Positions 9,779-36,211 of a DNA stretch of 64,000 nucleotides are shown here, in pieces. The stretch comes from Bacilli bacterium. GTDB lineage: Bacteria; Bacillota_I; Bacilli_A; RF39; UBA660. Each line of letters starts with the position of its first letter. Position 1 is the first letter of the stretch. The stretch covers positions 8,356 to 72,355 of the forward strand of contig JAAVZT010000033.1 in NCBI GenBank assembly GCA_022791775.1, given 5' to 3'. The notes beneath the pieces were generated by a model. The model was not told where the DNA came from. It did no database searches and saw nothing but the letters and a program-made list of their open reading frames with translations. The position numbers and the translations under genes are program-made.

Positions 9779-9790
9779 AAAAGTCCCTTT

Positions 9791-14662: not shown

Positions 14663-14960
14663 CTTTCATACACCAGCCTTTCCAATAATACCGTTTCCGA
14701 TTCATATAAAAGAGAAATATATTAGTCAAGAGTTGCATTACATTATGATAATTCGGAACGGGAACAACCAAAAAACCTGAAATAATAGCTGGAAGTAATA
14801 CTAAAAGTGCTGTTTGAAAATTCATCGATTGAAATATAAAAAGCAATATTAGCGTAACACTACATCCTACTCCAAATATGATTAAATCCAAATAGGTAAA
14901 GAAACCAAAAATAAGCTTTGATTTCTTTGTATTTGCTGGTATTAAATAATTCGTATTCAT
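14649..14960 (-). CDS. small two-TM membrane protein, VirB3-like position
   Basis: 103 aa with two hydrophobic helices, immediately upstream of virB4 as for VirB3/ConD/Orf17-type proteins. Confidence 0.4.
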   Translation of the reverse strand: MNTNYLIPANTKKSKLIFGFFTYLDLIIFGVGCSVTLILLFIFQSMNFQTALLVLLPAIISGFLVVPVPNYHNVMQLLTNIFLFYMNRKRYYWKGWCMKDGEK

Positions 14961-14978
14961 CTTTCACCCTTCTTAATT

Positions 14979-17435: not shown

Positions 17436-17880
17436 AGGTATCTAAACCATAAAGCCCAAAAATTTCAAACAATAAATCCAAAATAAATGGTAATAAAAAG
17501 ACAACTATACCTGCTACTAAGCGTTTTACAAACCTTCCATTCGCTTTTTTAATTTCATCTGCATTTTGCGCCGAAATTGCCTTTACATAATCTATCGTAG
17601 ATAAAGCAAGAACTAAAGTAGGAGCCAAAAACTTAATGAGCGTAAAAATATCCTGTAAAAATTCTTGCATTTGTGCATCAAAAAGCGCTTCACAGCCTTC
17701 TGTTGGACCAGCAGGTACAATCGGATCCATATTTCCATATTCCAAATCAGAAGAACCAGTTATAGTTTCTGGTTCAAAATATTTTATCTCAAACCCATAA
17801 GAAAAACGCTCTTTCGCTTCTACACTTTGAAACAAAACAAACACACACAAAAGAAAAAATAAAATTTTAGAGTATTTCAT
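17422..17880 (-). CDS. pilin-like hairpin protein E (signal peptide, about 70-aa ectodomain, VirB2/TrbC-topology two-helix module)
   Basis: C-terminal module LAPTLVLALSTIDYVKAISAQNADEIKKANGRFVKRLVAGIVVFLLPFILDLLFEIF aligns with the four downstream paralogs. The tail ends in a Cys. Confidence 0.55.
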   Translation of the reverse strand: MKYSKILFFLLCVFVLFQSVEAKERFSYGFEIKYFEPETITGSSDLEYGNMDPIVPAGPTEGCEALFDAQMQEFLQDIFTLIKFLAPTLVLALSTIDYVKAISAQNADEIKKANGRFVKRLVAGIVVFLLPFILDLLFEIFGLYGLDTCGIR

Positions 17881-17981
17881 ATTGAACTCCCCTCTACGAC
17901 TGATTCGTAAGACAATTTTTCACACAATCATTATATCAACTTTCCATAAAAAAAACTAGCATTATTTAAATTTGCTAGTTT

Positions 17982-18440
17982 TTAACACTTATTAGGAGAA
18001 GTAATACATAAACTACACTTTTGATAATCAGATTCATATGGATTAAATCCATCTACTAATTGAAAAACCAAATGAATCAAAGTCGGTAAAAAGAAAATTA
18101 CAACTCCTGATATTGCTCGAAACATTAAAGTACGAATAGCTTTTTTCATTTCATCATCTTTAGAACCAATCACCGCTTTTGAAAAATCCCATACGCCAAA
18201 AACAATTAATAAAATAGGAACGACAATCTTAATAACCATAAAAATTCTTCCCAAAAACCGAAATGGCTTTAGAAAATGAGGATTCGAACAAGGCGAAGAA
18301 TAAATAGTATTATTTGATTCATCTCCCATTTCATCACCAAGTGCAATCATTTCATCTAAAGAATTAGACGTAGCATACACAGGCATAACCTCAATTCCTA
18401 ACAACACTAGTAAAACTAATAAAAATCGTATTTTTTTCAT
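17982..18440 (-). CDS. pilin-like hairpin protein D (about 150 aa)
   Basis: Signal peptide (MKKIRFLLVLLVLLG), short ectodomain, then VPILLIVFGVWDFSKAVIGSKDDEMKKAIRTLMFRAISGVVIFFLPTLIHLVFQLVDG...CSLCITSPNKC. Start trimmed to the signal-peptide Met. Confidence 0.6.
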   Translation of the reverse strand: MKKIRFLLVLLVLLGIEVMPVYATSNSLDEMIALGDEMGDESNNTIYSSPCSNPHFLKPFRFLGRIFMVIKIVVPILLIVFGVWDFSKAVIGSKDDEMKKAIRTLMFRAISGVVIFFLPTLIHLVFQLVDGFNPYESDYQKCSLCITSPNKC

Positions 18441-18444
18441 ATTA

Positions 18445-19548
18445 TCACTCACTTTTAATCGTACATTCATCTGGATCTAAAATACAGACCCTACAATTAT
18501 GATAACGCGCCATGGTTTCAGAATAACCGTCTAATACTCCAAACAAAAATTCAATCAACGACGGCATCATAAAAATTACTACACCTATCAAAAAACGTTT
18601 TACTAAAACCGATACTTGTTTTGGAACATCATCGCTTTTTCCACTTAACATAGCTTTTCCAAAATCAATACTTCCTAGAACAATGATAATGAAAGGTACA
18701 AAAACTTTAACAATAAAAAGTAAAATTCCTAAAAATTTTAACGTTCTTGCCACTCGTGGCTCATAACATAAACCAGCTAAATTAATATCTTCATTTCCTT
18801 TTGATTCATCATGAAAAGAAGTATTATGATTCGAAGAATTCGCGCGTTCCATTGTAAAATATACATCATTACCTACTTCTTTTACAAAAAGACTACTTTG
18901 TTCACAACTTTTCGCATCTCGATAAAAATTATTTCCAATATCTTCACTAAAATAGAATGAGCGACCAGAAAGCTCTACCGAATCTTCTAAAAAGCCTTCG
19001 GTCCGTTGTTCATCATATGTTAATTCAAATTTCTTGGCTCCATCAGCATCTAAAAAGAAACGAATTCGCGCATTTTTACCATGAACCATAATAGATCGAT
19101 TACAAAAACTTTCCGATTGAGTTTCATTCCGAACTAATTGTACCATTGGAGTAATCAAAATAGCCTCTTCTTGAGTCACTTGACAAATTTGTGAAGAAGT
19201 ATAAATATGATAAAAACGGCTTTTTGTATCACGACAATAATACAAATCAGGAGCCTGATTTAAATAACTACCATCTTTAAAACTAAATGCTAATACATCT
19301 TGATCAAACTGATCCATAGAATTACCCTTTCCATAATAATCAATTCGATTTACTCCTTCAAAAAGAGCCCCAGACTTATATTCTTTCACAATTGTTCCGT
19401 CACTATATAAATCTAACATAAAACTAAGATCCATTCCTTCTTCTTGAAAAGAATACTCAAATGTTGCTAACAAATCACTAGCATTTACAAAAGTAGGAAT
19501 GAAAAGGAAAAAAATAGACACAATGATTTGTAAAATCTTTAATTTCAT
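18445..19548 (-). CDS. pilin-like hairpin protein C with about 300-aa N-terminal ectodomain
   Basis: Signal peptide MKLKILQIIVSIFFLFIPTFVNA. C-terminus VPFIIIVLGSIDFGKAMLSGKSDDVPKQVSVLVKRFLIGVVIFMMPSLIEFLFGVLDG...CRVCILDPDEC. Confidence 0.6.
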   Translation of the reverse strand: MKLKILQIIVSIFFLFIPTFVNASDLLATFEYSFQEEGMDLSFMLDLYSDGTIVKEYKSGALFEGVNRIDYYGKGNSMDQFDQDVLAFSFKDGSYLNQAPDLYYCRDTKSRFYHIYTSSQICQVTQEEAILITPMVQLVRNETQSESFCNRSIMVHGKNARIRFFLDADGAKKFELTYDEQRTEGFLEDSVELSGRSFYFSEDIGNNFYRDAKSCEQSSLFVKEVGNDVYFTMERANSSNHNTSFHDESKGNEDINLAGLCYEPRVARTLKFLGILLFIVKVFVPFIIIVLGSIDFGKAMLSGKSDDVPKQVSVLVKRFLIGVVIFMMPSLIEFLFGVLDGYSETMARYHNCRVCILDPDECTIKSE

Positions 19549-19558
19549 AAGAATCACC

Positions 19559-20821
19559 TTAACATTTCTTTGGACTTGTAATACATTTCGTACAATCTGA
19601 ATATGCCGTTTTATAATCGGTCCAGTCATCTACTAGAGAAAATAATACATGAATAACAGTTGGAATAAAGAAAATAACAACTCCTGCAATAGCTCGTATA
19701 GCAATTGTTTTAATCGATTTGGATAACTCTTCTGGATTTTGACTCACTACAGCTTTCATAAAATCAATTATTCCAAGAGTAATAATAATAATTGGAATCA
19801 AAAGACGAACGATCATTAAAATCCAACCAACGTATCGCATAGGAACTTTAAAATTTTGAGACTTACAAATTTGGCCTAATGTGATATCCGTCATAGTATA
19901 ACCCAAATCTTCTACTTGAGACCATTTATCATCTTCATTTTGCCCATCATTTCCATCCGTCTTGGCATTTGCTTTATAATGAACCAAATCATTCATAGCA
20001 CCAGTAAACAAATTTTTTTGTACAGCACATACAATCGAACCAGCAGCTACTTCTCCTCCAAACATTTCCTTAGCCTGATTTCGAATACTAAGACTAACAG
20101 ACAACTTACCACAATAAATATCTGTTGGCCATGTTTTTTTCTCAACCACTGGCTTAATAATTTCATTTGTATAATTCTCTATTCCAGAATGAACAAAAAT
20201 GACATTTTGCGTTTGATGAAATAAAATCATTTTTGATGATAAAGAATACTGATTTTGAAAATCATATTTAAAATAAAAAGTTAAATTTCCAAATTGATGA
20301 TCTGATCCTTCAGCATAATAAGTTTTTTTATATTCCTTAACAGATGAAGAAATTTCCATCTCGCCATCTTCCTTTTGAATCAAATCATCTTCTAATGAAG
20401 TTTTATCACTTAATGCAGCCCAAGTAACTGAAGTCAAAACACCTTGATATTTTAAATAATTATCCCGATCGGAATCCCCATAGATTAAATAGTAACCAGC
20501 TACATTTAATTGAGTTGGATTAACGGTCGTAATATTCATGATGTAATCTGGACACCGTTTTAAACTTTGATAATTTGTTTGAACACTATCATCATTTTTA
20601 AAAGAAGAAATAGAACGAGCAGGATTAATTTGATGGCCATCATAATATTGCAATCCAGAAAAAGTTCCATCTTGATAAAAGGTCACATCAACACCTAAAT
20701 ATCCGCCTTCTTTCCCACTATAATATTTACAAACACGATCTATTTCCTTAGCTTGTCCCACAAAAAGAAAACCAAAACATATAACACTCGCAAAAACGAC
20801 TCTTTGAATTATTTTTTTCAT
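19559..20821 (-). CDS. pilin-like hairpin protein B with about 350-aa N-terminal ectodomain
   Basis: Signal peptide MKKIIQRVVFASVICFGFLFVGQA. C-terminus IPIIIITLGIIDFMKAVVSQNPEELSKSIKTIAIRAIAGVVIFFIPTVIHVLFSLVDD...CTKCITSPKKC. Confidence 0.6.
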   Translation of the reverse strand: MKKIIQRVVFASVICFGFLFVGQAKEIDRVCKYYSGKEGGYLGVDVTFYQDGTFSGLQYYDGHQINPARSISSFKNDDSVQTNYQSLKRCPDYIMNITTVNPTQLNVAGYYLIYGDSDRDNYLKYQGVLTSVTWAALSDKTSLEDDLIQKEDGEMEISSSVKEYKKTYYAEGSDHQFGNLTFYFKYDFQNQYSLSSKMILFHQTQNVIFVHSGIENYTNEIIKPVVEKKTWPTDIYCGKLSVSLSIRNQAKEMFGGEVAAGSIVCAVQKNLFTGAMNDLVHYKANAKTDGNDGQNEDDKWSQVEDLGYTMTDITLGQICKSQNFKVPMRYVGWILMIVRLLIPIIIITLGIIDFMKAVVSQNPEELSKSIKTIAIRAIAGVVIFFIPTVIHVLFSLVDDWTDYKTAYSDCTKCITSPKKC

Positions 20822-20910
20822 AAGTATCTCCACTTCTTTTAAAGCTAAATTTATTATAACAAAAATACACACAAGAAACTAGAGAAAAAGAAAAAACAGT
20901 TTTCACTGTT

Positions 20911-21294
20911 TTATTCTCCATCTTCCTCTACGCTACAAAGAGAAGAATTCGGATTGGAAATACATGCCTTACATATATCAAAGTCATCTTTTACTTGTGC
21001 AAAGTTTCCAACAATTCCCATTAATACTCCAACAATAGTTGGAATAAAGAAAATGACAACGGCTGCAATCGCTCTTTTTAACAAAGCATTTGTTGCTTTT
21101 TTAATTTCATCATCTTTAGAAGCAATAACTGCTTTTCCCAAATCGATCATTCCAAAAACAATTAACAAAATAGGAATAACAATTTTAAATACCATTAAAA
21201 CATAACCTAATGTTTGCCAAATACTTGCAGAGGCAGAACAAAAACCTGCTTCAGTTCCTACATCATATCCCAAAAATATTAACTTACTTAACAT
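20911..21294 (-). CDS. minimal VirB2/TrbC-like pilin candidate A (127 aa)
   Basis: Long signal-like N-terminus, then a helix-charged loop-helix hairpin (VIPILLIVFGMIDLGKAVIASKDDEIKKATNALLKRAIAAVVIFFIPTIVGVLMGIV) and a CKACISNPNSSLC tail. Size and topology match VirB2/TrbC pilins. Confidence 0.55.
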   Translation of the reverse strand: MLSKLIFLGYDVGTEAGFCSASASIWQTLGYVLMVFKIVIPILLIVFGMIDLGKAVIASKDDEIKKATNALLKRAIAAVVIFFIPTIVGVLMGIVGNFAQVKDDFDICKACISNPNSSLCSVEEDGE

Positions 21295-22401: not shown

Positions 22402-22887
22402 TTAATTTAAAATAACTGGTACATCATCTTTTGGAAAATTAATGTCAATAGTTGAGCCAGATACATGAAATGTAAATAAATCCCCAATAATTGGCAAATT
22501 AAATTGAAAAAATGTATCGATTTCATATCTTGCTCTATTTCGAAAAGAACTATCGCTTGTATTAATCTTTTTGACGCAATAATAATATTTTACTCCACTA
22601 CTTGCTCGCACCAAAGAAGCATCATCTAAAGATACAGCTCCATAAGTATCCGTCGGACAATTTCCTTTCGCTTGATAATGATAATACCGTAAATAGTTAT
22701 TAATAAGTGAAACGCTCTTATTTTCTCCTGACATAACTCCTTCGTACTTCTCAATAATAGAAAGCATCTCATTTTTAATTTTAAAAGCCTTGGTATAATT
22801 AATTGACAAAGCTAAAAAACCAACAAAAATCAACATAAATAGGATAACTAATTGCAAAATCCATGTAGAACCGATTGCTTGTCTCAT
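22402..22887 (-). CDS. TadE/pseudopilin-like protein 1
   Basis: N-terminus MRQAIGSTWILQLVILFMLIFVGFLALSIN (short polar leader, Gly, hydrophobic helix), then a roughly 120-aa globular domain. Paralog of the next gene. Confidence 0.4.
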   Translation of the reverse strand: MRQAIGSTWILQLVILFMLIFVGFLALSINYTKAFKIKNEMLSIIEKYEGVMSGENKSVSLINNYLRYYHYQAKGNCPTDTYGAVSLDDASLVRASSGVKYYYCVKKINTSDSSFRNRARYEIDTFFQFNLPIIGDLFTFHVSGSTIDINFPKDDVPVILN

Positions 22888-22891
22888 TTTC

Positions 22892-23410
22892 TCACCTACT
22901 TACACTCATAACTTTGGTATCACCTGTTAAAGAAAACATAAATAATTCATTAAAAACAGGTAAATCTAGCTGATAAAATACAACAACTCGATAATAACGC
23001 ATATTTGGTAATTCTTGAACCTGTTGCGGAATATCAGAACCATTTTTATCTCCCATTTTAACCTCTGCCAAACAAAAAGCTGGATTCGTCTTATCTTTCT
23101 TTCCTTCTCGATTATATCCTTGATAAACAATTTCTAATTTATTTTTAGAACTAGTTACATCTGCTGGACACTTACCCGTCGTTCGATAAGAAGAATGTTT
23201 TAAAATATTAGCAATTTCTTCTAATACAACACTTCCACTACTATCCGTACTAAGATCCACTCCATTATAACGTTCAATTACTTCTAGAATTTCACTTTTA
23301 ACACCATATGCTTTGGAATGGTTAATAGTTAAACACATAAATCCCGTAAAAAGCAAAATGAAAAAAATGACAATTTGAAATAACCAAGTTCCACCTATTG
23401 CTTCTCTCAA
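22892..23410 (-). CDS. TadE/pseudopilin-like protein 2
   Basis: N-terminus MREAIGGTWLFQIVIFFILLFTGFMCLTIN. Same architecture as the previous gene. Confidence 0.4.
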   Translation of the reverse strand: MREAIGGTWLFQIVIFFILLFTGFMCLTINHSKAYGVKSEILEVIERYNGVDLSTDSSGSVVLEEIANILKHSSYRTTGKCPADVTSSKNKLEIVYQGYNREGKKDKTNPAFCLAEVKMGDKNGSDIPQQVQELPNMRYYRVVVFYQLDLPVFNELFMFSLTGDTKVMSVSR

Positions 23411-23429
23411 AAATCATCACCCATTTCTA

Positions 23430-23660
23430 TTAACCTTTCCAAACGCATGTGAATTTCTCAGATCTTCGTCCTTTATAATAACAGTCCACAGTTCCATCTG
23501 CATTTGGTTTTTTTTCACATATAGCATCACTGCATTTGGTTGTTCTCGCCATATTATTCCGAATCATTGGCCAGATAATCGTAAAGAAAAAAGCTGCTAG
23601 AATAGCGACCACTATTATTACAAAAACAGTCATATTAAGTTCTCCAGTAGCTTCTTTCAT
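23430..23660 (-). CDS. Flp-size pilin-like protein 1 (76 aa) with Cys-rich C-terminus
   Basis: MKEATGELNMTV leader, then a hydrophobic helix (FVIIVVAILAAFFFTIIWPMI), then a tail with 5 Cys. Confidence 0.4.
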   Translation of the reverse strand: MKEATGELNMTVFVIIVVAILAAFFFTIIWPMIRNNMARTTKCSDAICEKKPNADGTVDCYYKGRRSEKFTCVWKG

Positions 23661-23688
23661 ATATTATCTTTCACCTACGATTTCCTTA

Positions 23689-23928
23689 TTATTTATTATT
23701 GTTATTTGGACAAGTAACTTTTTCACTTACACCTTTTTCATTCAAATATTGACAAGTACAAGTATTTCCTTTACTACAATCACAATTTGTAACATTTGCA
23801 CATTTAGTACTATTTAAAATATTAGTCTTAATACTTGGCCATATAAATGCATAAAAGAATGCGGCTACAGCAGCAATTGCCACAACAGTAACAACTGTCA
23901 TATTTAATTCTCCGGTTGCTTCTTTCAC
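23689..23928 (-). CDS. Flp-size pilin-like protein 2 (79 aa) with Cys-rich C-terminus
   Basis: GTG start. KEATGELNMTV is identical to its paralog although the DNA differs at synonymous sites. Hydrophobic helix, then a tail with 7 Cys. Confidence 0.4.
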   Translation of the reverse strand: MKEATGELNMTVVTVVAIAAVAAFFYAFIWPSIKTNILNSTKCANVTNCDCSKGNTCTCQYLNEKGVSEKVTCPNNNNK

Positions 23929-23989
23929 GAATAGACCCTCCTTTACTATATTTTTATTATAACTGGTTCTTCTAAAAATATCAATTCAT

Positions 23990-24778
23990 TTACATATTCA
24001 TTAACATAAGTACAGCTAAAATCAATAAAACCATTACACCCAAACCAGTCGCAATTAACATATGCATGGTTTTTCCTTCCATTTTCTCCAAACGTTCTTT
24101 ATATTTAATCTCTCTCGCCTTTTGTTGCAAATTAGAAATCGTCTTCGAAAATGCTAATAATTGTTCTTGTTTATGTTCTTGTCTTCCAAGACTCAAACGA
24201 TATAACAAACGCATCATTCGCATAGAATCACGCACAGGATACGTTTTAGCAAAATTCATGTATGGATCAATTCGGTCATTTCCCGCATTAATCTCATTAA
24301 TCATTTCCTGAAGTCCCTCTTTAAAAATAGATGGTGCATCTTCAATAGATTTACCAAGAGCCACAGGAACAGTATAATGTTGAATTAAAATTTCTAAACT
24401 TTTTAAATAATGCGGTAACATCGAATCAATTTCATGTAAATGAGCTTTATAATATTTCTTTAAATTGGAATAATCCATTTTAAAAACTAAATATCCTCCA
24501 ATTAAAGAAAAAATTATTGTAATATAACTAATTTTACTAAGAAAGAAAAATACTAAAACTAAAATTGTCAATAACCCATTTTGAATTCGTTTATTAAAAA
24601 GGAAATCAGGATTTACTCCATCGCCATATTTTGCTTTAACATAAAAGTCCCAATCTGACTCTTTTAATTTTCGAAAATAAACTTCATTATCCGCTACAAA
24701 ACGATTTGCACTAATTCGTCCTGTATAATTTAAAAGAAATAAAATAATCGCTCCCAAAATAAATATTTCAAAATACAT
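23990..24778 (-). CDS. TadC-like pilus platform membrane protein (single T2SS-F-type domain)
   Basis: N-terminal TM, a paired TM, a roughly 130-aa cytoplasmic domain and a C-terminal TM. Adjacent to a second similar protein and the secretion ATPase. Confidence 0.45.
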   Translation of the reverse strand: MYFEIFILGAIILFLLNYTGRISANRFVADNEVYFRKLKESDWDFYVKAKYGDGVNPDFLFNKRIQNGLLTILVLVFFFLSKISYITIIFSLIGGYLVFKMDYSNLKKYYKAHLHEIDSMLPHYLKSLEILIQHYTVPVALGKSIEDAPSIFKEGLQEMINEINAGNDRIDPYMNFAKTYPVRDSMRMMRLLYRLSLGRQEHKQEQLLAFSKTISNLQQKAREIKYKERLEKMEGKTMHMLIATGLGVMVLLILAVLMLMNM

Positions 24779-24780
24779 AA

Positions 24781-25674
24781 TTATTCAACCCCCACATCTT
24801 CATAATAGAATTTCTCTCCCGTTATCAAAAAATAACAATTCACTACAATAATAATGTGAAGAATTAATTGTACATACCACATATCAAGCATCTCAATATA
24901 ACTATCGGTCCCCAGTAAAAATTGCATTGCCATAACGAGTAAAAATAATGCCAAACCAAAAGTAACAAATCGCTTGTGAAAATCAGCACGATCAATTTGA
25001 TCTCGGTATACACCTTCAACCAAAGCATCGATATCCATCGACATATTTTCCAAAGCTTCTCCTGAATCCTTGGCCCCTTCTTTAGTAATTTGTAAAAATA
25101 ATTGATTCATATTCTTAACCATATAATACGGATATTTTTCATTAAAATAAACGACTGACTCATCTATCGTTCCGTTTTGATATGACATATCGATCATAGT
25201 TTTAACATCTGATAAAACGGGATCTTCTAAAATACCTGAATCCCGAACGCCTTCCAGCGATTTTACAAAACTTTGCGTTGTATTAAATTCCATAATTACA
25301 TTCGTTGTATAAATTTGAATCTGTTCAAAAATAAATTCACTGTATACTTTTTGACATCTTAAATAAGCCAAATAAGGAATAAATGCTACTGCAATTGCAC
25401 CATACATTATTGCAATTAAAATATTATAAAAATACAAATAAGAAATTCCTCCAGCTACTCCAGCAAAAATGATAACTTGCGTTGCATATTGCTTTGGTGT
25501 GTACTCCTGGCCTAATTCTTTTGTTTTTGCTCGTACTTCTTTAAAACTATAGGGCGCATATTTATTATAAGCATTAGAAACCTGGGTAATAAAGAAACGA
25601 TATACATTCTCCCCATTATTTCTTCGATAAGAAATAACAAAAATGGCTATAATAATCAGAATGATTAGTTCCAT
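24781..25674 (-). CDS. TadB-like pilus platform membrane protein (single T2SS-F-type domain)
   Basis: Same topology class as the previous gene. The pair of about 260- and 300-aa single-domain platform proteins matches the TadB/TadC pattern rather than ComGB/PilC. Confidence 0.45.
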   Translation of the reverse strand: MELIILIIIAIFVISYRRNNGENVYRFFITQVSNAYNKYAPYSFKEVRAKTKELGQEYTPKQYATQVIIFAGVAGGISYLYFYNILIAIMYGAIAVAFIPYLAYLRCQKVYSEFIFEQIQIYTTNVIMEFNTTQSFVKSLEGVRDSGILEDPVLSDVKTMIDMSYQNGTIDESVVYFNEKYPYYMVKNMNQLFLQITKEGAKDSGEALENMSMDIDALVEGVYRDQIDRADFHKRFVTFGLALFLLVMAMQFLLGTDSYIEMLDMWYVQLILHIIIVVNCYFLITGEKFYYEDVGVE

Positions 25675-25688
25675 AACTAAACCTCTTT

Positions 25689-26798
25689 CTACAATGTTTC
25701 CATTGCTGTATTTTGTTCCCCTGCTTCCATACTGGCTCTTTCATCTAAATGAAAGATATCTGAAGGTAATGTAACACCCTGAATACCCAAATAATCTCGC
25801 AAATATTTCGTCGGATTATTCATCACTAATTCTCCAGTTAAATTCTTTCGAAAAATCGTATTCACTTGGGGTCTATTATCTTCATCTACATAAAATTCAC
25901 AAACTTCCATAATTTCACGTTGAAATCTACCCAGTTCTTTACTTAAATAACCTTTTACATATATCCCAATTTGTACATAACGATGAATGGTAGTTAAAAA
26001 TTGATCTACATCCAAATTAGATTCCAACAAACTAAACATACGAAGTGGAATCAAACTTGCTTTATCAGAATGGATGGTTGATATAATATGATGCCCTGAA
26101 GAAATCGAATTTCGAACAGCTGTAACAGCTTCTGCACTACGTACCTCAGAAAGCAAAATCCAAATTGGATTCTGCCGCATACAGGTAACCAATACTTCTG
26201 AATAACTTGCAATATTATTTGTTTTCATTGCAACAATATCTCGGTGAGGAAAAATTTTATCTAAATGAAGTTCTAATGTATCTTCAATGGTAATAATCTT
26301 TTCATTTTCCTTCGTATGACTTGCCAAATATTTAACTAATTCAGTTTTACCAGAACCAGTTTCACCACTCACTATAATATTGGCATGTCCTTGAACACAA
26401 CTTAACAAAAAGTTTAGAATTTCTTCTGAAACATATTTTTCATCCAACAATTTTTCACGATTTAATCTTATCTTTGCTGGCGTTTTACGAATTACACAAG
26501 CAATTCCATTTGTAGCAATTGAATCATGCACAAAATTAAGACGCAACTCGGCACTTTCCGCATCAAGAAAAGGATGAGCCATATTGAAGGTCTTTCCCAT
26601 AACATTAGCACATTGAAATGCTAATTTCTCCATCAAGGGATCATTGATATCGGGCCTGTCAACTTGATAAACACCTTTATCCAAAGTTTTTAGCCAAACG
26701 CGACCATTATTACTATACGAAATATCAGTTATATTATCATCAACCAAAAAATCATTCAATGGTCCAAAATCAATTTGCGAAAAGACAGCTTCATGCAT
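25689..26798 (-). CDS. VirB11/TadA(CpaF)-family secretion ATPase
   Basis: Walker A IIVSGETGSGKTELV, Asp box ITIEDTLEL and His box RQNPIWILLSEVRSAEAVTAVRNSISSGHHIISTIHS. 369 aa. Confidence 0.85.
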   Translation of the reverse strand: MHEAVFSQIDFGPLNDFLVDDNITDISYSNNGRVWLKTLDKGVYQVDRPDINDPLMEKLAFQCANVMGKTFNMAHPFLDAESAELRLNFVHDSIATNGIACVIRKTPAKIRLNREKLLDEKYVSEEILNFLLSCVQGHANIIVSGETGSGKTELVKYLASHTKENEKIITIEDTLELHLDKIFPHRDIVAMKTNNIASYSEVLVTCMRQNPIWILLSEVRSAEAVTAVRNSISSGHHIISTIHSDKASLIPLRMFSLLESNLDVDQFLTTIHRYVQIGIYVKGYLSKELGRFQREIMEVCEFYVDEDNRPQVNTIFRKNLTGELVMNNPTKYLRDYLGIQGVTLPSDIFHLDERASMEAGEQNTAMETL

Positions 26799-26812
26799 AT
26801 GCTCATCCCCTT

Positions 26813-27667
26813 TTATTCATTTGTATTATTATTATTATTATTATCGTTATTTATATTTCCGGAATTTATTGTATTATTAGGTGCTCCCTCTGGAATAACG
26901 ACAGATTGTGACAAGATAAAATCTTGAATATAAGCACTTGACACTCTAGTTTCTCCAGGATTTGCTGAATAAGAAGCATTTCTTGGCACTGGAATTATTT
27001 CAACACTGTTTCCAGAAATGTAATTTGCTTTCTTTAATAAACTAAACATATCATCTGGAACTGCAAATACCAATACAGCAGGAATACGTGCCTCAACCGA
27101 AGTTTCAAATACATGTTGTCCTTCTGAATCACGTACATCTAATACTTCAATACTTTCAATTAATTTACCAAAAATAATCTTTCGATTTTCATCAAATCCT
27201 TTAAAATACAAATCAATGTAATTACCTGGATAAATAGAATTTCCATAAGTAGAATTAATATCCACATCTAAATAAATAATTGTATATCCATCCGGGATAT
27301 TACTAATCGCAAAATCAGGAGTGTTAGCTGCATCTGTAATTTGCTCTGTATAGAAAAAACCATTTTGCGGAATCATATTCCCATATTGAACTTGCTTTCC
27401 AACTAATTGACTAGCATTCTGAATTAAATTTTTACTTTTACTAACTACTTCTCTAGATACCTCCATATATCCAATATCTTCCAATGTTATTTCATGTCTT
27501 GAAATAAGTTGATTTTTAGCATAAGGAATTTGAACTGGATCGGTAGCTTGTTTTACTCTCCAAGTATATCCTATATAAAGTACTAAAATTCCCGCAATAA
27601 CTCCGATGATCGTTACTGTATTCTTATTTCCTAAAAATCGTTTAATTGATGTTAAAACATTTCCCAT
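26813..27667 (-). CDS. CpaB/RcpC-like (SAF-domain) pilus assembly protein candidate with poly-Asn C-terminal tail
   Basis: N-terminal TM then a SAF-like region (LISRHEITLEDIGYMEVSREVV). C-terminal NNDNNNNNNTNE is encoded by an (ATT)n run. Confidence 0.4.
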   Translation of the reverse strand: MGNVLTSIKRFLGNKNTVTIIGVIAGILVLYIGYTWRVKQATDPVQIPYAKNQLISRHEITLEDIGYMEVSREVVSKSKNLIQNASQLVGKQVQYGNMIPQNGFFYTEQITDAANTPDFAISNIPDGYTIIYLDVDINSTYGNSIYPGNYIDLYFKGFDENRKIIFGKLIESIEVLDVRDSEGQHVFETSVEARIPAVLVFAVPDDMFSLLKKANYISGNSVEIIPVPRNASYSANPGETRVSSAYIQDFILSQSVVIPEGAPNNTINSGNINNDNNNNNNTNE

Positions 27668-27724: not shown

Positions 27725-28612
27725 CTATCTATTATTAATAATATCACGTATATCTGGAATATTTCCCTTTAAATAAGGTCTAATTCTACTGATAATAACT
27801 AATTTTTCTCGCTCTGTAAATGTAATACCATAATCTTGTTCAAAATCTTCGATAAATTTACTTTCTTTATTTGGTCGATGAAGAGGAAAGCATCTGTTTA
27901 AAATAGAAACAGAATTACTATAATACAAATCTCCACTAATTGTTCCAGAATTAGATCCTGTAGTTGAATTATCTTCCCGATCTCCACTAGAATTATTTGA
28001 ACTAAGACCTGGACACCAAAAATAACGATTTAAATTTTCAGAAAGATAAGCCAAAAGTTGTCTTTCTGTTGGAATACGACTTATATTTGGATTATAAATA
28101 TAAGATAAGTTATCATCAGACCCCGAATTATCTAAACTTGGAGGTGTTCCAGTAGAAGGTGTCACATTATTCGGACGTGTAGCATTTTCCATAACACTAC
28201 TTCCATTTGATGCCCCATTTAATTCTAATACAGCATCAATTTTTTCTACAATATCAAAACTAGTTGAATCTCCCATTACACGATAAGTGCCACTTTTGGT
28301 TGTAACTTTCACGCTGGCTTTTGGAGGAGCTTCATAAATATCATAAAAATCTATTTGATAAGTATTAATTGAAGCATTCTCCGCAAATCTTCGCAAGAAA
28401 TTCTCTACAAATTTCTCGCGATTAATTCGAAGTTCTGAGAATTGACGATAATAACTATAATCAATAGCATCTACCATTGCGGCTTCCGTAACATCTTTGA
28501 TCATATAATAATCTTGTGTACTAGAAGAGGTAACATTAGAAACTAACATCATAATGACTACAACGAAAATTCCCAATAGGATAATCCAATATCCCCATAA
28601 AGATTCTTTCAT
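27725..28612 (-). CDS. pseudopilin-like membrane-anchored protein (295 aa)
   Basis: N-terminus MKESLWGYWIILLGIFVVVIMMLV shares the short polar leader, Gly-x-Trp and hydrophobic helix pattern of the TadE-like pair. Confidence 0.35.
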   Translation of the reverse strand: MKESLWGYWIILLGIFVVVIMMLVSNVTSSSTQDYYMIKDVTEAAMVDAIDYSYYRQFSELRINREKFVENFLRRFAENASINTYQIDFYDIYEAPPKASVKVTTKSGTYRVMGDSTSFDIVEKIDAVLELNGASNGSSVMENATRPNNVTPSTGTPPSLDNSGSDDNLSYIYNPNISRIPTERQLLAYLSENLNRYFWCPGLSSNNSSGDREDNSTTGSNSGTISGDLYYSNSVSILNRCFPLHRPNKESKFIEDFEQDYGITFTEREKLVIISRIRPYLKGNIPDIRDIINNR

Positions 28613-28624: not shown

Positions 28625-31600
28625 CTACTTCCAAGCTGGTCCTAAACCATCAGATACCACATATTTTGTACCATTTGTGAAATATCCACTATTCGGCCAT
28701 AAAATCCATTCAGTATTTCGTGCTTTTTCTTCAAAATACTTTCCATTTCCTTCACTTAAGAAATTACTGCGACATACCAAATTCGCATAGGATTTATTTT
28801 CATATACACGAGACTCACAAACTAAAGCATCTGTATTATTATCATCCATTCTAACATTCAAATATCCACCAACGGCTTTATTGTATTCACGAATTCGCTT
28901 CATTTGAAGTGGATTAATCACATAAGAGTATTCTGGCGTTTCATAAATATTCTCTGCCGACTCCTCTATTTTCGTTTGTGTATACTTTCCTTTTACATTC
29001 TGCCAATTAAAACCATATTCTCGTTCATTTGGCATTAAATTATTGATAGAAACAGTTCGGTAAAAGAAATTGTTATTTTGTGTAAAAATACAATCTGGAC
29101 ATTCTGAAATACATTCAGGACAATCGTCATCTGGCACAATTTCACAAGGCCACGGATCACATTTCACATCGCAATTTGGACAATTATTTACATAAAAACA
29201 TACATAACCAGCTGTTACTGTGCTTTTAGAAGCATTAAATACACTATTGCTAGTTCCAATTAAACGACCTGGTGTATTCGAATCATTAAATTGCCCTACA
29301 TGTGAGATTGTAAAATCAAAATTAAACACTCCTGTTTTTTGATTTAGAGAAATCGGTAAACAAGCACCGCTTCCATCACACAAATTAGTATAAAGAACAT
29401 ATTTATCTTGACTCTTATCTAAAGCTATTGTTCCAGAAGGAACATAAATTGAAAACTTATTATTTGGACGATAAACTTGATTTTGAACAGTAGCTGTTTT
29501 ACTAACATATTTTGCATTACTTACATTACGAGTTTCAATATAACAACCATTTGCATTACAATTTATATATTGCTCAGCCTGTTCTCCTGCAACATCTGTT
29601 GTCGATTGCGCACAATTATATTGATTATCAACAGATCCTGCACAATAAGAAGCACTATTTTTAACATGAATTGTTCCAGTCTCAAATTTATTATTAAAAC
29701 CAGACATATTTTGATATGGTTCATCATATTTGAAAGTTATCGAAGGATCAAAAGCAAATTCATTTGACCAACCATTACTACAATCATTATATTGTTTAAA
29801 AATTTTATTAATATTAGCAAGATTAGCCTTATATGCTGTTTCATATTCAGAAATTTTTGCATTAACTCGACCTTCAACAGTTTCCTTAGAACCATCTGTA
29901 CAAGTAGGTGAAGCTCCACAACCACCATCACTAGCACTTCCATCAGAACTTACAATATCTGCTCCTTGATTTGAAATGCCAGATGAAATATGCATTTGAC
30001 CATTTCGATCATAAGAATAACTTAAACTAGTATAATTATAACTTTCAACATACCAAACAGTAGCTGAACATGAGCCAGAACTAGTACAACCACACTCAGA
30101 ATAACCATCAGCACAAGTTTTAGACTCTGTATGCCCAACAGCCGTTTTAGTTTCACTTTCAATATGACTCAAAGCAGTTTTATATCTTACATATTCATTA
30201 TAATTAGCAATTAATTTTTGGAATTCTTGATCTAAATCATAACGGAAACGAACGTGATCTATTCCATTAAATTGACTATCTTTTACGCCATTAAAATCTT
30301 CTCGACCATTTACATAACAAGTACGAGTTCCAGAAACTTTAGTTTCTAATTCAAAGTAACTTCCACTCATTGTATATTCTGAATTTGGTAATTTAAATTC
30401 ATAATTTTCCACACAACTTACTTTACAATAAGGATTATTAGATACTGTATCTTGATCAGTCATTTCAAAAGAATTTCCAGCTTTATCATGATTTTTAGCA
30501 TTAAATAAACAATATTTAATTTGTGCATCATCTTTTACATCTTTTACATGATTTACTAAGAAATCATTATTACTATTAAATTCGGTACATTTACCAATAA
30601 AATTAATATCTGGATCTTTTCCACAATCAATACTCTGTCCACCACAATACCGTTTATAATCTTCACTATTTTTATCTAATACTTGGCAACATCCCAATGC
30701 TGTTTCAGAATAATAATTATCTTTTGTCGTAATATTACCAGCAGCATCATAATAATTACCATTCTCATAACGACAATACTTTGGAGTACATTCTAATAAA
30801 TATTGTGTTTCATCGACTTCTGTTCCATCTTTGCCATAATGCACACCATTAATAATTTCACAAGTTCGTTTATTTCCTTCTCCACATTTTTGCTCAAATT
30901 CCATTTTAGAATAGAAATATTTTCCATTTTTATAATCATCTTGATTTGCCCAACCATATTTATCATTAGTTTGCTCTGCTTTTGGAACAAAAGAACAATA
31001 TAACGGACATTTATGGGCAACCATTTCATCAGTCGTAGTTAACTTCTGATCTCCATAGTAGACGTCCCCATTTTCTCGATAATAACATTCCAAACCAAAA
31101 TTATCACAATAAGTTTGAAAATCTGTCTTATTAAAATAATAACTATTTCCGTAGGTTACTTTACCCCACATATTTTCAGAAGCCCAACCGTAATGATTAT
31201 CATTTCTAGTACTATCTGGAAATAACTTACACATTAACGCACAACCATAATGAACCATATCCATTTCATTAGTTAATTCATATGGTGTACCAATTTGTGC
31301 GTTTGTTTCTATAGAATAAGTATATAGCATTGGCTTACCTGAAGATGTTACACATTTTGTATAGATTTTGTTTCCTGTATTTGGACAATTATATCGAATT
31401 TGTTCTTCAACAGTAAGTTCTTCCTTCCTAGAAGTTTCTTTTCCGTCTTTATAAGTAACATAATCAAATGTCCCATCCGGTTGCTCTTCACAACCATCAG
31501 CATATACGTGATGACGTTGACGAGAAGGTGGAGCAGATTGAATAGACATGTTTCCATCAGCTACAACCAACATTTTTTGCATAGAAGCATTTGTAGGCAC

Positions 31601-32641
31601 ATTAAGAAGCATTATATTAGAGCCGGAAGCTTTAACATCATAATAGCTAGAATCAAAATATAATTCATATGTTTTTCCATCATAATTATTCATTCGTTCT
31701 ACTGTAATAACTACTTTTCCTGTTTTGCCAGACCCTTCTGCTCTCGAAGTACATTTTACGGTACTATTTTTACAACCTCCCACAAATTTATTCCAAAAAA
31801 TATGAGAAGGTGCCTCCCCATGAGAAGCATCTAAATGAATCGTAAATTCTTCCATGTTATCGCCTTTCACAACTTTATCGATAACATATGTATAAGTATC
31901 TCCCCATAAAGTTGTATCTTGTCCTGGACCAGACGGAACTAAATCTTCATATTTTTTTCCTGCTAAAATTTCATTTCCAGCTTCCATTGCTTTTTTATAA
32001 ACTTCTTTTGCATAAGAAATATCTGCAGCATAAGAAATATTCTTACCGCTTTCATCTTGTAAAGGAACATCCCAATACTTTACAGTACCATCTTGATTAT
32101 GTTCAGAGAACAATTTTAAAACATCATCTGCTCCTCTTTCATAAGCTTTCCCTGTATCTCCTAAACCATAATTATAAGAAAGCCATCGAAAAACTAATTC
32201 ACCAACAATTCGATCTTCATTTGACATAGTAGCACGACCATCTGCTAATAATTTTTGATATGCTTTCGTAATCGCTACATCATATGCTTGTAAAGTAATA
32301 TTCCCATTCGAACTTAGACCTGAAGGATCGATAACTCGTTCACAAGAATAATTTGGTCTACGAGGAGAATTAACATCAAGATGTGCTCCCCCAAGTTTAG
32401 CTGGAGACATACAATAAGTTTTTAAGTTTACTCCTCCACTAGAAGTATTATAAAATCTAAGCTGATAATTATAATCTCTTTGACCTGAAATAGAATAACC
32501 TAATCCATGTGGAATATAAACTTCCCCTCCATAGGTAACTTGATAACTTCCACTCGGACAAAGTGATTCTGCAGATACCATACTAGGTATTAATATAAGC
32601 AATAAAAATCCATACAATATTTTGGAAACATATTTCATCAT
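28625..32641 (-). CDS. giant secreted cysteine-rich protein (1338 aa), candidate pilus-associated adhesin or surface component
   Basis: Sec signal peptide (LLLILIPSMVSA) and about fifty Cys by eye. Internal roughly 45-aa repeats (..NDxYGWA...YxFxKxxFxxxC). Dense C-terminal CPxC cluster (NNCPNCDVKCDPWPCEIVPDDDCPECISECPDC). Confidence 0.7.
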   Translation of the reverse strand: MMKYVSKILYGFLLLILIPSMVSAESLCPSGSYQVTYGGEVYIPHGLGYSISGQRDYNYQLRFYNTSSGGVNLKTYCMSPAKLGGAHLDVNSPRRPNYSCERVIDPSGLSSNGNITLQAYDVAITKAYQKLLADGRATMSNEDRIVGELVFRWLSYNYGLGDTGKAYERGADDVLKLFSEHNQDGTVKYWDVPLQDESGKNISYAADISYAKEVYKKAMEAGNEILAGKKYEDLVPSGPGQDTTLWGDTYTYVIDKVVKGDNMEEFTIHLDASHGEAPSHIFWNKFVGGCKNSTVKCTSRAEGSGKTGKVVITVERMNNYDGKTYELYFDSSYYDVKASGSNIMLLNVPTNASMQKMLVVADGNMSIQSAPPSRQRHHVYADGCEEQPDGTFDYVTYKDGKETSRKEELTVEEQIRYNCPNTGNKIYTKCVTSSGKPMLYTYSIETNAQIGTPYELTNEMDMVHYGCALMCKLFPDSTRNDNHYGWASENMWGKVTYGNSYYFNKTDFQTYCDNFGLECYYRENGDVYYGDQKLTTTDEMVAHKCPLYCSFVPKAEQTNDKYGWANQDDYKNGKYFYSKMEFEQKCGEGNKRTCEIINGVHYGKDGTEVDETQYLLECTPKYCRYENGNYYDAAGNITTKDNYYSETALGCCQVLDKNSEDYKRYCGGQSIDCGKDPDINFIGKCTEFNSNNDFLVNHVKDVKDDAQIKYCLFNAKNHDKAGNSFEMTDQDTVSNNPYCKVSCVENYEFKLPNSEYTMSGSYFELETKVSGTRTCYVNGREDFNGVKDSQFNGIDHVRFRYDLDQEFQKLIANYNEYVRYKTALSHIESETKTAVGHTESKTCADGYSECGCTSSGSCSATVWYVESYNYTSLSYSYDRNGQMHISSGISNQGADIVSSDGSASDGGCGASPTCTDGSKETVEGRVNAKISEYETAYKANLANINKIFKQYNDCSNGWSNEFAFDPSITFKYDEPYQNMSGFNNKFETGTIHVKNSASYCAGSVDNQYNCAQSTTDVAGEQAEQYINCNANGCYIETRNVSNAKYVSKTATVQNQVYRPNNKFSIYVPSGTIALDKSQDKYVLYTNLCDGSGACLPISLNQKTGVFNFDFTISHVGQFNDSNTPGRLIGTSNSVFNASKSTVTAGYVCFYVNNCPNCDVKCDPWPCEIVPDDDCPECISECPDCIFTQNNNFFYRTVSINNLMPNEREYGFNWQNVKGKYTQTKIEESAENIYETPEYSYVINPLQMKRIREYNKAVGGYLNVRMDDNNTDALVCESRVYENKSYANLVCRSNFLSEGNGKYFEEKARNTEWILWPNSGYFTNGTKYVVSDGLGPAWK

Positions 32642-33408
32642 AATATTCTACTCCTCCGCTTTTTCAAAATCACAATAGCCGATAGAGCCCCTCCGATAAT
32701 TATTACAACAACGACGCTAATAATTATCGTTCGATGTTCGGAAATAAAATCACTTAGATTATCCCAAAAACTTTTATTCTTTTCTTCTTCTTTCTTTTGT
32801 TGTAACTTAGAATATTCTTCTCCAATTCGTTTTGTTATCTCAGACTCTGATGCATAAAACGGAGTCGTAATAAATTCCTGACAAAACTCATAATTTGGTA
32901 AATCAGCACAGGCACTGATATCAGAATAATGATTCCGCATTGGTGTGCTATAATCGATGGTTCTTAAATTATCTCCCTTACATCTCGGGGAATTAGAATA
33001 AATGGTAATTTTATAATTAACAATTTCACTAAAATCTCCTCCATCAAATTCTAACACTCCATCTTTCATATCCTTATAATAAAAAGTTTGTTCAAAATTA
33101 TTGCTTCCTTTAACATGAATATAAATATCATCAGTCATATTTAAGATATTTACTAAAGCTTTATCCATAAAGCCATAGTCATCATAACCTGCATTTTCAG
33201 AATACGCTTCTTCTGGAAGAGTATCATAATAATTTCCATTCACATCAAAATAAACTCGCTTTTTTTCATAATTCATTTTAATTGCTGCTGCATAGTTACT
33301 TAATTGGACCTGTTCCGAATAATCACACGTCGATGCTGCATTCACATCTACCCCCACCAAAAGTACCCACAACAAACATCCTAAAAACACTTTTTTAAAA
33401 TATTTCAT
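32638..33408 (-). CDS. secreted protein with C-terminal TM anchor and basic tail; first gene of the cluster
   Basis: Signal peptide, about 200-aa ectodomain with 5 Cys, C-terminal TM plus KKRRSRIL. ATGA overlap with the giant gene. Confidence 0.55.
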   Translation of the reverse strand: MKYFKKVFLGCLLWVLLVGVDVNAASTCDYSEQVQLSNYAAAIKMNYEKKRVYFDVNGNYYDTLPEEAYSENAGYDDYGFMDKALVNILNMTDDIYIHVKGSNNFEQTFYYKDMKDGVLEFDGGDFSEIVNYKITIYSNSPRCKGDNLRTIDYSTPMRNHYSDISACADLPNYEFCQEFITTPFYASESEITKRIGEEYSKLQQKKEEEKNKSFWDNLSDFISEHRTIIISVVVVIIIGGALSAIVILKKRRSRIL

Positions 33409-33437: not shown

Positions 33438-33466
33438 ATTGTAGCACAGCCCAATTGCAATTTCAA
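33438..33466 (-). promoter_or_regulatory. sigma-A-type promoter for the T4SS/Tad cluster (-35 TTGAAA, 17-bp spacer, -10 TACAAT on minus strand)
   Basis: On the minus strand, TTGAAA (complement of 33461..33466) and TACAAT (complement of 33438..33443) are spaced 17 bp apart, about 30 bp upstream of the ATG at 33408. Two CAATTGC motifs at 33452..33458 and 33474..33480 overlap and flank it. Confidence 0.55.
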
Positions 33467-33523: not shown

Positions 33524-33964
33524 ATGAAAAAAAATTTAATTTTAGGAAGTATAATTTTAAGCATTATAGCAATCTCAGTTGTCCTGATTTTCATTCCCAA
33601 AAATTCAAAAGAAAATCTAATAAATATTAATGGAAAAGAATTACTAGCAAAATTAGAACAAAAAGAAAATTTTATCTTAGTAATCTCTCAAGAAGGATGT
33701 CATTTTTGTGAAGAATACAAACCAATATTAAATCGAATTTTAAAAGAAGAAAATTTAGAAGCTTATGAATTAAACTTAACAGAACTTCGAAAAGAAGAAG
33801 AAAATATTCAAAATGAAGTAAAAAAATTATTTAATGTAGATGGAACTCCTGTTACGATTTTTATACAAAATGGAGAAGAACAAACCACCATTAATCGTAT
33901 TATTGGAACCACTACTTATTCTAATTTAAAAAATAAATTAAAAGATCGTGGTTTTATAAACTAG
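33524..33964 (+). CDS. membrane-anchored thioredoxin-like protein (CxxC)
   Basis: N-terminal TM and a thioredoxin-fold-like region with a CHFC motif. Confidence 0.65.
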   Translation: MKKNLILGSIILSIIAISVVLIFIPKNSKENLININGKELLAKLEQKENFILVISQEGCHFCEEYKPILNRILKEENLEAYELNLTELRKEEENIQNEVKKLFNVDGTPVTIFIQNGEEQTTINRIIGTTTYSNLKNKLKDRGFIN

Positions 33965-35637: not shown

Positions 35638-36078
35638 TTAAACACATTCTACGTATGTATCTGACAAACAACGAATAGCACATACACATGATAGATCCAT
35701 TGTAAAGAAAGAATTCGTAGCTACATATGGATTTAAACTTGTCGTATCAGGATTATCCTGTAATACGCGACATGTACAACAATTTCCATCGACTTTCTCT
35801 ACGCGAAATACATTTGAACATGTTCCAACTGGATTATTTGATTCATCACAATTTGCATTAGAATCTTTACTTACTGGCATTCTCCATGGTGTTCCACAAC
35901 AACCACAAGTATATAGCATTATTGGTCTAGTATTACAAATTAAACAATTAGGACCTCCACCCAAAACTGGTCGATCGCAAGAATCCAAACAATTTTCTGG
36001 ACAAGCATTTTGTTGTAAAACTAAAATTACATTTAAAATTTCAGCAATACAATTTGATCCATTATTGTTATTATTACT
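35638..36078 (-). CDS. cotZ: CotY/CotZ-family cysteine-rich spore coat protein
   Basis: GTCSNVFRVEKVDGNCCTCRVL and DLSCVCAIRCLSD match the CotZ/CotY signature (FFRVERVHGSC...DCFCAINCLNP). Start reassigned to MSNNNNNG, which has an AAAGGGTGA RBS. A candidate sigma-K-type -10 (CATAAATTA) lies upstream. Confidence 0.65.
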   Translation of the reverse strand, partial: SNNNNNGSNCIAEILNVILVLQQNACPENCLDSCDRPVLGGGPNCLICNTRPIMLYTCGCCGTPWRMPVSKDSNANCDESNNPVGTCSNVFRVEKVDGNCCTCRVLQDNPDTTSLNPYVATNSFFTMDLSCVCAIRCLSDTYVECV

Positions 36079-36211
36079 CATATCATTCACCCTTTCATGT
36101 ATTCTCATTAATAATTTATGATACATTTTTAAATTCGTGCGCAATTTAGAAAAAAGAAATAATTGTTTTAAATCCCATTCATTTGTTGTATAATTTTATT
36201 AGGTGATTTAA

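Follow-up and report, generated by a model that had tools for sequence, protein, structure and literature searches.

The PilC/PilY1 proteins of type IV filaments are exported by the Sec pathway, contain disulfides and combine diverse N-terminal adhesin domains with a conserved C-terminal part (PMC12918778). Their last ~6-10 residues dock into a minor pilin, and the ~1200-residue MshQ is predicted to behave likewise (PMC12918778). Tad pili use a large accessory tip protein, CpaL/TadG, whose C-terminal strand is essential (PMC12918778). The adhesin-like TraN of F plasmids has 20 conserved cysteines, and its helpers are the thioredoxin-fold proteins TrbB and TraF (PMC7555446). Chromosomal type IV secretion systems (T4SSs) that lack a relaxase and carry arrays of VirB2-like pilins have been described in the monoderm Patescibacteria (PMC12102498), and an operon of DUF5411 and CpaF genes has been flagged in Clostridia as an uncharacterised secretion-related system (PMC9523054). 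Here we compare these systems with a locus from an uncultured Bacilli bacterium, analysed in a stretch of 64,000 nucleotides (GenBank assembly GCA_022791775.1, contig JAAVZT010000033.1, positions 8,356 to 72,355 of the forward strand) that we call the window. Our subject is the gene for a 1338-residue, cysteine-rich secreted protein, named BIG in what follows, and the pilus-like genes downstream of it.

The genomic link between BIG and the pilus-like genes is strong, and the function of the protein is best explained as that of a new, non-homologous variant of the adhesins associated with pili or T4SSs. By analogy, we tentatively favor a model in which BIG is an extracellular, disulfide-stabilized adhesin of the Tad-like filament encoded by its own operon, similar in logic to PilC/PilY1 or MshQ without being homologous to them.

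The BIG gene and its operon

BIG is encoded by a single intact open reading frame on the reverse strand (Table 1). A record identical to the 1338-residue protein (P0001) is present from 6 contigs, annotated "hypothetical protein" and assigned to an uncultured "Bacilli bacterium" metagenome-assembled genome (MAG), and this excludes the frame error that the preliminary description of this DNA had raised as a concern. The protein contains 51 cysteines (3.81%), compared with a median of 0.94% across the 43 other open reading frames of the window, among which only a CotZ-like protein is richer. This cysteine content is far beyond chance and is a trait of the whole family described below. Residues 1-30 form the sole hydrophobic stretch and include a signal-peptidase-I site (VSA, with cleavage before E). 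We searched the BIG sequence for an LPxTG motif and a second transmembrane (TM) segment and found neither; it has no sortase anchor made up of a C-terminal LPxTG, a TM helix and a basic tail. The preliminary description, which had called BIG a single 1338-residue secreted protein with about fifty cysteines, a Sec signal peptide and no obvious sortase or TM anchor, is borne out on each of these points.

The same description had linked BIG to a neighboring Tad-like module, suggesting a tip adhesin, an effector or a cargo, and the arrangement of the genes confirms this link. The start codon of BIG overlaps the stop codon of the first operon gene, g256, in an ATGA with a GGAGG ribosome-binding site (RBS) upstream, indicating translational coupling. 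Only 12 nt, which contain another GGAGG RBS, separate the BIG stop codon from the start of the DUF5411 gene, and no terminator-like sites were found between the genes of the operon. We regard BIG as coupled in translation to both of its neighbors. A sigma-A-type site with an extended -10 element is the sole promoter-like site in the gap upstream of g256; it is a consensus match from a scan that, taken as a whole, was not enriched over shuffled sequences. We find the gene order g256-BIG-DUF5411-CpaB-ATPase-platform-pilins-g339 in every one of 18 related loci, even where BIG is only 25% identical.

Across these loci, the ATPase is 81-93% identical, DUF5411 62-75%, g256 28-51% and BIG 25-44%. The gradient is equally visible in a single locus, L001, where identities are 93% for the ATPase, 90-94% for the platform proteins, 75% for DUF5411, 74% for the pilin, 51% for g256 and 44% for BIG. 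No other gene of the operon evolves as fast as BIG. Loci with BIG identities of only 40-45% still have the same housekeeping genes at their flanks (TyrRS, M29 peptidase, FtsW/SpoVE and CotZ-like genes), from which we conclude that the cluster is chromosomal and passed on vertically. We found no BIG relatives among IMG/VR viral contigs or PLSDB plasmids. On the strength of this result and of the shared flanks, we rejected an origin of the cluster from a phage, plasmid or other mobile element.

The ATPase of the Tad-like module matches CpaF (4.8e-17) and VirB11 (9e-17) about equally, and its two polytopic platform-like proteins had no match in Pfam or the PDB. A prepilin peptidase gene was not recognized in the pilus-like cluster. 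The DUF5411 protein (MKESLWGYWIILL...) and the two pseudopilin-like proteins (MREAIGGTWLFQ... and MRQAIGSTWILQ...) have similar N-termini. In all three, the signature M-[KR]-[EQ]-[AS]-x-x-G-x-W precedes a hydrophobic helix, and because of this common start DUF5411 may be a minor-pilin-like family. The DUF5411 protein of the window also carries a ~160-residue S/N/T-rich C-terminal extension that is missing in orthologues of 138-146 residues. The small pilin-like proteins, of 76 and 79 residues, are encoded in tandem and both start with MKEATGELNMTV; after this come a hydrophobic helix and a very small C-terminal domain, which has 4 cysteines in the first protein and 6 in the second. g339, a soluble protein of 339 residues with no family match, is 61-82% identical among loci; its gene is the last of the Tad-like module wherever the locus is long enough to reach this point.

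Monoderm-type T4SS genes lie beyond g339. They code for three VirB2-like proteins of the T4SS_pilin family (127, 162 and 152 residues), a VirB6/TrbL-like protein (818 residues), a VirB4-like ATPase (594 residues), a hydrolase with SpoIID and NlpC/P60 domains (817 residues) and a VirD4 coupling protein (740 residues). A relaxase was not recognized among these genes, and the set resembles the T4SS with pilin arrays reported for Patescibacteria (PMC12102498). In three related loci (L006, L007 and L013, the P0007 group), a hydrolase-like gene that is 27-30% identical to the 817-residue hydrolase stands directly after g339, and no T4SS pilin, VirB6 or VirB4 genes lie between the two. The Tad-like and T4SS parts are therefore separable, and BIG tracks the Tad-like module.

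A divergent operon flanks the other side of g256. Its first gene codes for a membrane-anchored thioredoxin-fold protein that matches Pfam Thioredoxin_2 and TraF (23.5 bits, cut-off 23) and is PedC-like in orthologous loci. This protein is a candidate extracytoplasmic disulfide oxidoreductase. Genes for an Rce1-like CPBP intramembrane protease and then a metallophosphoesterase follow it. The Rce1-like gene adjoins the BIG operon in most related loci, and the thioredoxin gene does so only in the closer ones. A CotZ-like spore coat gene is found farther on, with FtsW/SpoVE- and SleB-like genes near, and the source lineage may therefore sporulate.

Family and domain architecture

Searches with BIG returned no family match in Pfam, NCBIfam (Pfam/NCBIfam at E<=1 / 0.01) or PHROGs. 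A PDB sequence search with a profile of the full family gave no match, and one with a profile of the BIG head gave coiled-coil noise only. A word-based search recovered only 7 relatives, and repeating it with a profile gained little. An exhaustive HMMER search with an alignment of those 7 relatives, however, recovered 730 representatives of clusters defined at 50% identity (E<=1e-3), 344 of which reach E<=1e-30. The members listed are 0.9-1.5 thousand residues long, with an N-terminal signal peptide and 3-5.5% cysteine. Wherever a source is named, it is a MAG of uncultured gut Bacilli or "Tenericutes"; the samples are from rabbits, chickens, a mouse catalogue and Hadza humans. We found no paper on this family in the literature, and DUF5411 turned up only once there, in the clostridial operon mentioned above (PMC9523054). 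BIG thus belongs to a large family that is unnamed and undescribed and whose fold is unrecognized.

The conservation profile splits BIG into a variable N-terminal head, a repeat spacer of variable length and a conserved C-terminal base. Identity to relatives is 13-22% in the head and 28-41% in the base, which is the region matched by most of the 730 hits. The spacer is missing from most relatives (gap fraction 0.7-0.9). Within it, residues 454-512 align to residues 532-586 with a local score of 92 in a Smith-Waterman comparison against shuffled sequences; a self-BLAST of BIG detected no repeats. The spacer holds 2 copies of a ~78-residue two-module unit and 4-5 hairpin motifs of the form C-x3-NG-x-YY. 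Both repeats quoted in the preliminary description are therefore real, but they belong to two ~78-residue copies and not to a tandem array of ~45-residue units. Elsewhere in the family, one relative (P0022) carries an NlpC/P60 peptidoglycan-hydrolase domain inserted at residues 725-825, and another (P0155) has an N-terminal InlB B-repeat (Flg_new) module at residues 31-98. The BIG family therefore accepts domain insertions and swaps.

We built two AlphaFold2 (AF2) models, of the head and of the core, using family alignments (predicted local distance difference test, pLDDT, 75-80). The core model (pLDDT 79.8, predicted template-modeling score 0.72) is elongated and made of long helices and hairpins. 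In the spacer, AF2 confidence is low. Foldseek found no significant fold match for the core model in the PDB or BFVD, or for the head model in the PDB. 

A conserved short element lies at the very end of the protein. G1334, P1335 and W1337 of BIG are each conserved in at least 90% of the family, and G-P-[SA]-W-[KR] forms the exact C-terminal end of nearly all listed members.

Paired and unpaired cysteines

In an alignment of 90 family members, 16 core cysteines are present in at least 97% of sequences, and 10 of these in all. Other cysteines are gained and lost strictly in pairs. Cys 1000/1010 are both present in 61 sequences and both absent from 29; the corresponding numbers are 80 and 10 for Cys 1028/1033, 12 and 78 for Cys 1088/1094, and 66 and 24 for Cys 1275/1290. 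In no sequence does one member of any of these pairs occur alone. The pairwise pattern therefore points to structural disulfides and indicates that BIG is stabilized by about 25 of them.

A dense cluster of cysteines spans residues 1148-1184. Exactly 9 cysteines occur there in 65 of the 90 members, and the remainder have 11, 13 or 7. AF2 confidence falls below a pLDDT of 50 across this cluster. BIG has three CPxC motifs, beginning at residues 1154, 1174 and 1181, so the dense CPxC cluster of the preliminary description exists in this protein, but what the family keeps is the 9 cysteines and neither the proline nor the middle spacings, which vary from 2 to 10 residues. The run is also not terminal, as had been stated; it lies 154 residues ahead of the C-terminus. 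We considered a thioredoxin-like CPxC redox site and a Zn-ribbon or other metal site and rejected both because the proline and the spacings are unconserved and the number of cysteines steps by two (9, 11, 13). The same features argue that the cluster is a disulfide knot.

Of 130 full-length members, 117 have an odd cysteine count in the mature protein (binomial p=4e-22), and one cysteine therefore remains unpaired. All 65 sequences compared have C77, a residue of the head, and no other cysteine covaries with it, whereas C28/C100 and C290/C297 do track each other. C77 is the best candidate for the unpaired residue. The other extracytoplasmic proteins of the Tad-like module all have even numbers of cysteines in their mature parts.

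C77 (in YCMSP), R152 and Q355 are the only invariant residues of the head, and across the family the context of C77 is Y-C-[ILMV]-[DS]-P. The cysteine motif of thioester domains (TEDs) is [YFL]-C-[ILVM]-x, which the Y-C-M-S-P of BIG satisfies. A distant relative, P0097, matches Pfam TED at 21.8 bits, below the cut-off of 22; the match begins exactly at I-A-Y-C-L-D-P and stops at the position equivalent to TQxA. The TED-like stretch of P0097 had no match in a PDB search. One other family member has a weak match to TED_2 (E=0.019), and BIG itself matches neither TED nor TED_2. The glutamine of the TQxA(I/V)W motif is not kept: the corresponding residues are G-E-L-V-F-R-W in BIG and T-N-I-A-A-R-W in P0097, and few members have glutamine at that position; the invariant Q355 is a different glutamine. 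No TED structure was among the top 50 Foldseek matches of the head. TED membership of the head is therefore not established; a degenerate TED ancestry is possible.

Table 1. Features of the BIG locus, with positions in the window
Feature	Position	Strand	Description
Monoderm-type T4SS genes	6745..21294	-	VirB2-like pilins (3), VirB6/TrbL-like, VirB4-like, SpoIID+NlpC/P60 hydrolase, VirD4
g339	21360-22379	-	last gene of the Tad-like module
Tad-like type IV filament module	22402..27667	-	CpaB/RcpC-like, CpaF/VirB11-clade ATPase, 2 platform-like, 2 small pilin-like, 2 pseudopilin-like
Pseudopilin-like proteins (172 and 161 aa)	22892-23410, 22402-22887	-	N-termini compared with DUF5411
Small tandem pilin-like genes (76 and 79 aa)	23430-23660, 23689-23928	-	
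DUF5411 protein	27725..28612	-	directly downstream of BIG; Pfam PF17424, E=1e-53
BIG, 1338-aa Cys-rich secreted protein	28625..32641	-	intact single open frame; stop codon 28625-28627
Extreme C-terminal peptide G-L-G-P-A-W-K	28628..28648	-	family motif G-P-[SA]-W-[KR], then stop codon
Conserved C-terminal base, aa 653-1338	28628..30685	-	family-defining core; two long helices (about aa 796-824 and 919-956), long beta-hairpins
Conserved 9-Cys cluster, aa 1148-1184 (YVC..NNCPNCDVKCDPWPCEIVPDDDCPECISECPDC)	29090..29200	-	each Cys kept in 97-100% of sequences
Cys-stapled repeat spacer, aa 384-652	30686..31492	-	two ~78-aa units and short NG-x-YY hairpin modules; length varies in family
Variable N-terminal head, aa 25-380	31502..32569	-	beta/alpha subdomain, then Ig-like beta-sandwich; AF2 pLDDT mostly >90
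Sec signal peptide, aa 1-24 (MMKYVSKILYGFLLLILIPSMVSA, then E)	32570..32641	-	sole hydrophobic segment; signal-like N-terminus in nearly all family members
g256, first operon gene	32638..33408	-	signal peptide, ~190-aa 4-Cys ectodomain, C-terminal TM helix, basic tail
Sigma-A-type promoter-like site, TTGAAA-17-TGcTACAAT	33438..33466	-	upstream of g256; consensus match only
Membrane-anchored thioredoxin-fold protein (TraF/PedC-like)	33524..33964	+	CHFC active site; divergent from BIG operon
Thioredoxin-fold gene and Rce1-like CPBP protease gene	33524-34690	+	
CotZ-like spore coat gene	35638..36144	-	11% Cys

Candidate functions and known systems

How might BIG act as an adhesin of the Tad-like filament? 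Sec would export it and signal peptidase I would cleave it, after which it would fold oxidatively outside the membrane, forming about 25 disulfides, possibly with help from the neighboring TraF/PedC-like thioredoxin. The conserved base, ending in G-P-[SA]-W-K, would dock on a partner, for which DUF5411, the pseudopilin-like proteins and g256 are candidates. From there, the Cys-stapled spacer of variable length would project the fast-evolving head onto a target surface such as a host, mucus or a partner cell. The invariant and probably unpaired C77 of the head could make this contact covalent or redox-sensitive. Docking of the C-terminal peptide to a pilin-like partner is predicted by analogy with PilC/PilY1.

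We rank a PilY1-like adhesin first because the pattern found in BIG (anchorless Sec export, a swappable head, a spacer, a conserved base and a terminal peptide) matches the logic of PilC/PilY1 and MshQ. The identity gradient in L001, from the ATPase through DUF5411 and g256 to BIG, is typical of exposed parts and counts in the same direction. Modular conservation and the invariant C-terminal peptide also favor a retained adhesin over a released cargo. Several observations nonetheless weigh against a filament adhesin. Neither the sequence nor the fold of BIG matches PilY1, PilC, MshQ, CpaL or any adhesin, and there is no beta-propeller. Its C-terminal tail contains glycine and proline, and AF2 does not predict a free strand there. 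The gene stands at the head of the operon and not beside the pseudopilin genes, and the thioredoxin gene is a neighbor only in the closer loci. The module was itself assigned to filaments indirectly, since its ATPase fits CpaF and VirB11 equally well and its platform proteins match nothing in Pfam or the PDB.

A possible but doubtful alternative is that BIG serves the downstream monoderm T4SS as a surface contact adhesin, held at the membrane by g256, a type-I membrane protein, instead of being borne by a filament, and stabilizing cell-cell junctions for DNA or protein transfer. The VirB6-, VirB4- and VirD4-like genes, the hydrolase gene and three VirB2-like pilin genes all lie on the same strand as BIG. 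g256, whose gene is translationally coupled to BIG, has TM segments at residues 4 and 220, the latter serving as a C-terminal anchor. Adhesins head the T4SS operons of Gram-positive bacteria, and monoderm T4SSs depend on adhesins (PMC12102498). TraN, with its 20 conserved cysteines and its TrbB/TraF helpers (PMC7555446), provides a further parallel, and the thioredoxin next to BIG passes the Pfam cut-off for TraF. The loci L006, L007 and L013 argue against this alternative: they have no T4SS pilin, VirB6 or VirB4 genes after g339, yet BIG is still found with the Tad-like module. BIG also shows no homology to TraN or to PrgB of pCF10, and with no relaxase found, conjugation itself is unproven.

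The two machines might instead form one. BIG could be the target-recognition tip of a chromosomally fixed, relaxase-less hybrid of Tad filament and T4SS in uncultured gut lineages of Bacilli or Tenericutes type, a contact apparatus in which a disulfide-knotted stalk of new fold would carry a degenerate thioester head and C77, the single free cysteine of that head, would form a covalent or redox-switchable bond to a host or partner surface. Such an apparatus would resemble the T4SS- and pilus-dependent epibiotic attachment proposed for Patescibacteria. We consider a hybrid of this kind unlikely.

We give little credence to the idea that BIG is a released effector or toxin for which the Tad-like machine serves as a type-II-like secretion device, possibly a pore-former whose long beta-hairpins would enter the membrane of a target. 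The top Foldseek matches of the core in two libraries are MACPF proteins (the MPEG1 pore, E=1.6e-3, and an Orpheovirus MACPF, E=1.8e-3), followed by beta-pore-forming toxins in their pore form, and BIG is both anchorless and fast-evolving. The MACPF matches are not significant, however (TM-score 0.06, rmsd 44 Å, probability 0.08), and the MACPF signature motif was not present when we looked for it in BIG. A protein exported by Sec needs no second secretion machine in a monoderm, a conserved base and an invariant C-terminal peptide are more in keeping with retention than with release, and no immunity-like partner gene is evident.

Equally improbable, in our judgment, is a structural role in spanning the envelope, in which BIG would be a wall-crossing sheath, an alignment element or a gate that replaces the secretin/RcpA-TadD layer that monoderms lack. 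Strict co-inheritance with the machine, the elongated predicted core of long helices and hairpins, and the NlpC/P60 domain inserted in one family member would all suit this role. Machine parts, though, are normally conserved like the ATPase and platform proteins, whereas BIG evolves faster than any other gene of the operon, and in its relatives the head and spacer have been exchanged or lost. Finally, a spore coat or exosporium protein that adjoins the cluster by chance and is separately transcribed, as the preliminary description had envisaged, is very hard to credit: Cys-rich proteins of Firmicutes are often coat proteins, and a CotZ-like gene and sporulation-type genes are near, but, unlike coat proteins, which are synthesized in the cytoplasm of the mother cell, BIG carries a cleavable Sec signal, its gene is translationally coupled within a pilus-like operon that has a sigma-A-like site upstream, the CotZ-like gene is ~3 kb away beyond the divergent operon, and BIG has no homology to coat families.

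The BIG family has no name, domain model or structural relative, although it is the most variable part of a conserved surface machine, and its hosts, common gut bacteria that have not been cultured, live in mice, rabbits, chickens and humans. If BIG is the adhesin of that machine, it would fill the place of the PilY1-type component, which monoderm Tad-like filaments lack, and would point to what these gut bacteria attach to. The family shows that a monoderm from a strictly anaerobic niche can assemble an extracellular protein with about 25 structural disulfides, which implies a working extracytoplasmic pathway for oxidative folding. The conserved, probably unpaired cysteine in a TED-like motif offers a concrete chemical hypothesis.

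We compared BIG with the described systems it most resembles. Like CpaL/TadG, it is a large accessory protein linked to a Tad-like system, but CpaL has a pilin-like start and complements its own sheet in cis, whereas BIG begins with a classical signal peptide and not with a pilin-like segment. PrgB is also a large secreted surface protein (~1300 residues) at the head of a T4SS-containing operon; in contrast to BIG, it is anchored through LPxTG and has known adhesin and Ig-like domains, none of which BIG shares. TED adhesins (PF08341/PF20610) lack counterparts in BIG for their partner glutamine, Pfam match and sortase anchor, but they resemble it in the invariant cysteine of the Y-C-[ILMV]-[DS]-P motif and in the odd cysteine parity that leaves one cysteine outside disulfides. 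TraN is a non-homologous, ~600-residue outer-membrane protein of diderms, and BIG is tied to Tad-like and not to T4SS genes; the likeness is that of a Cys-rich T4SS contact protein with thioredoxin helpers, since BIG has a TraF/PedC-like thioredoxin next door.

The comparison with PilC/PilY1 and MshQ is the closest. It does not extend to sequence, where BIG has no Pfam or NCBIfam match and the family profile no PDB match, or to the PilY1 beta-propeller: the core model consists of helices and hairpins, and no PilY1 chain is among the 50 Foldseek matches listed. The host of BIG is also a monoderm with a Tad-like system of the CpaF/VirB11 clade, and BIG is predicted to have about 25 disulfides rather than a few. 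BIG nonetheless has the Sec signal, the variable N-terminal part and the conserved C-terminal part expected of a PilC/PilY1 protein. It shares with PilC/PilY1 and MshQ a length of about 1000-1200+ residues, export by Sec and signal peptidase I rather than as a prepilin, disulfides, a conserved extreme C-terminal peptide, and a gene located in a type IV filament operon beside pilin-like genes.

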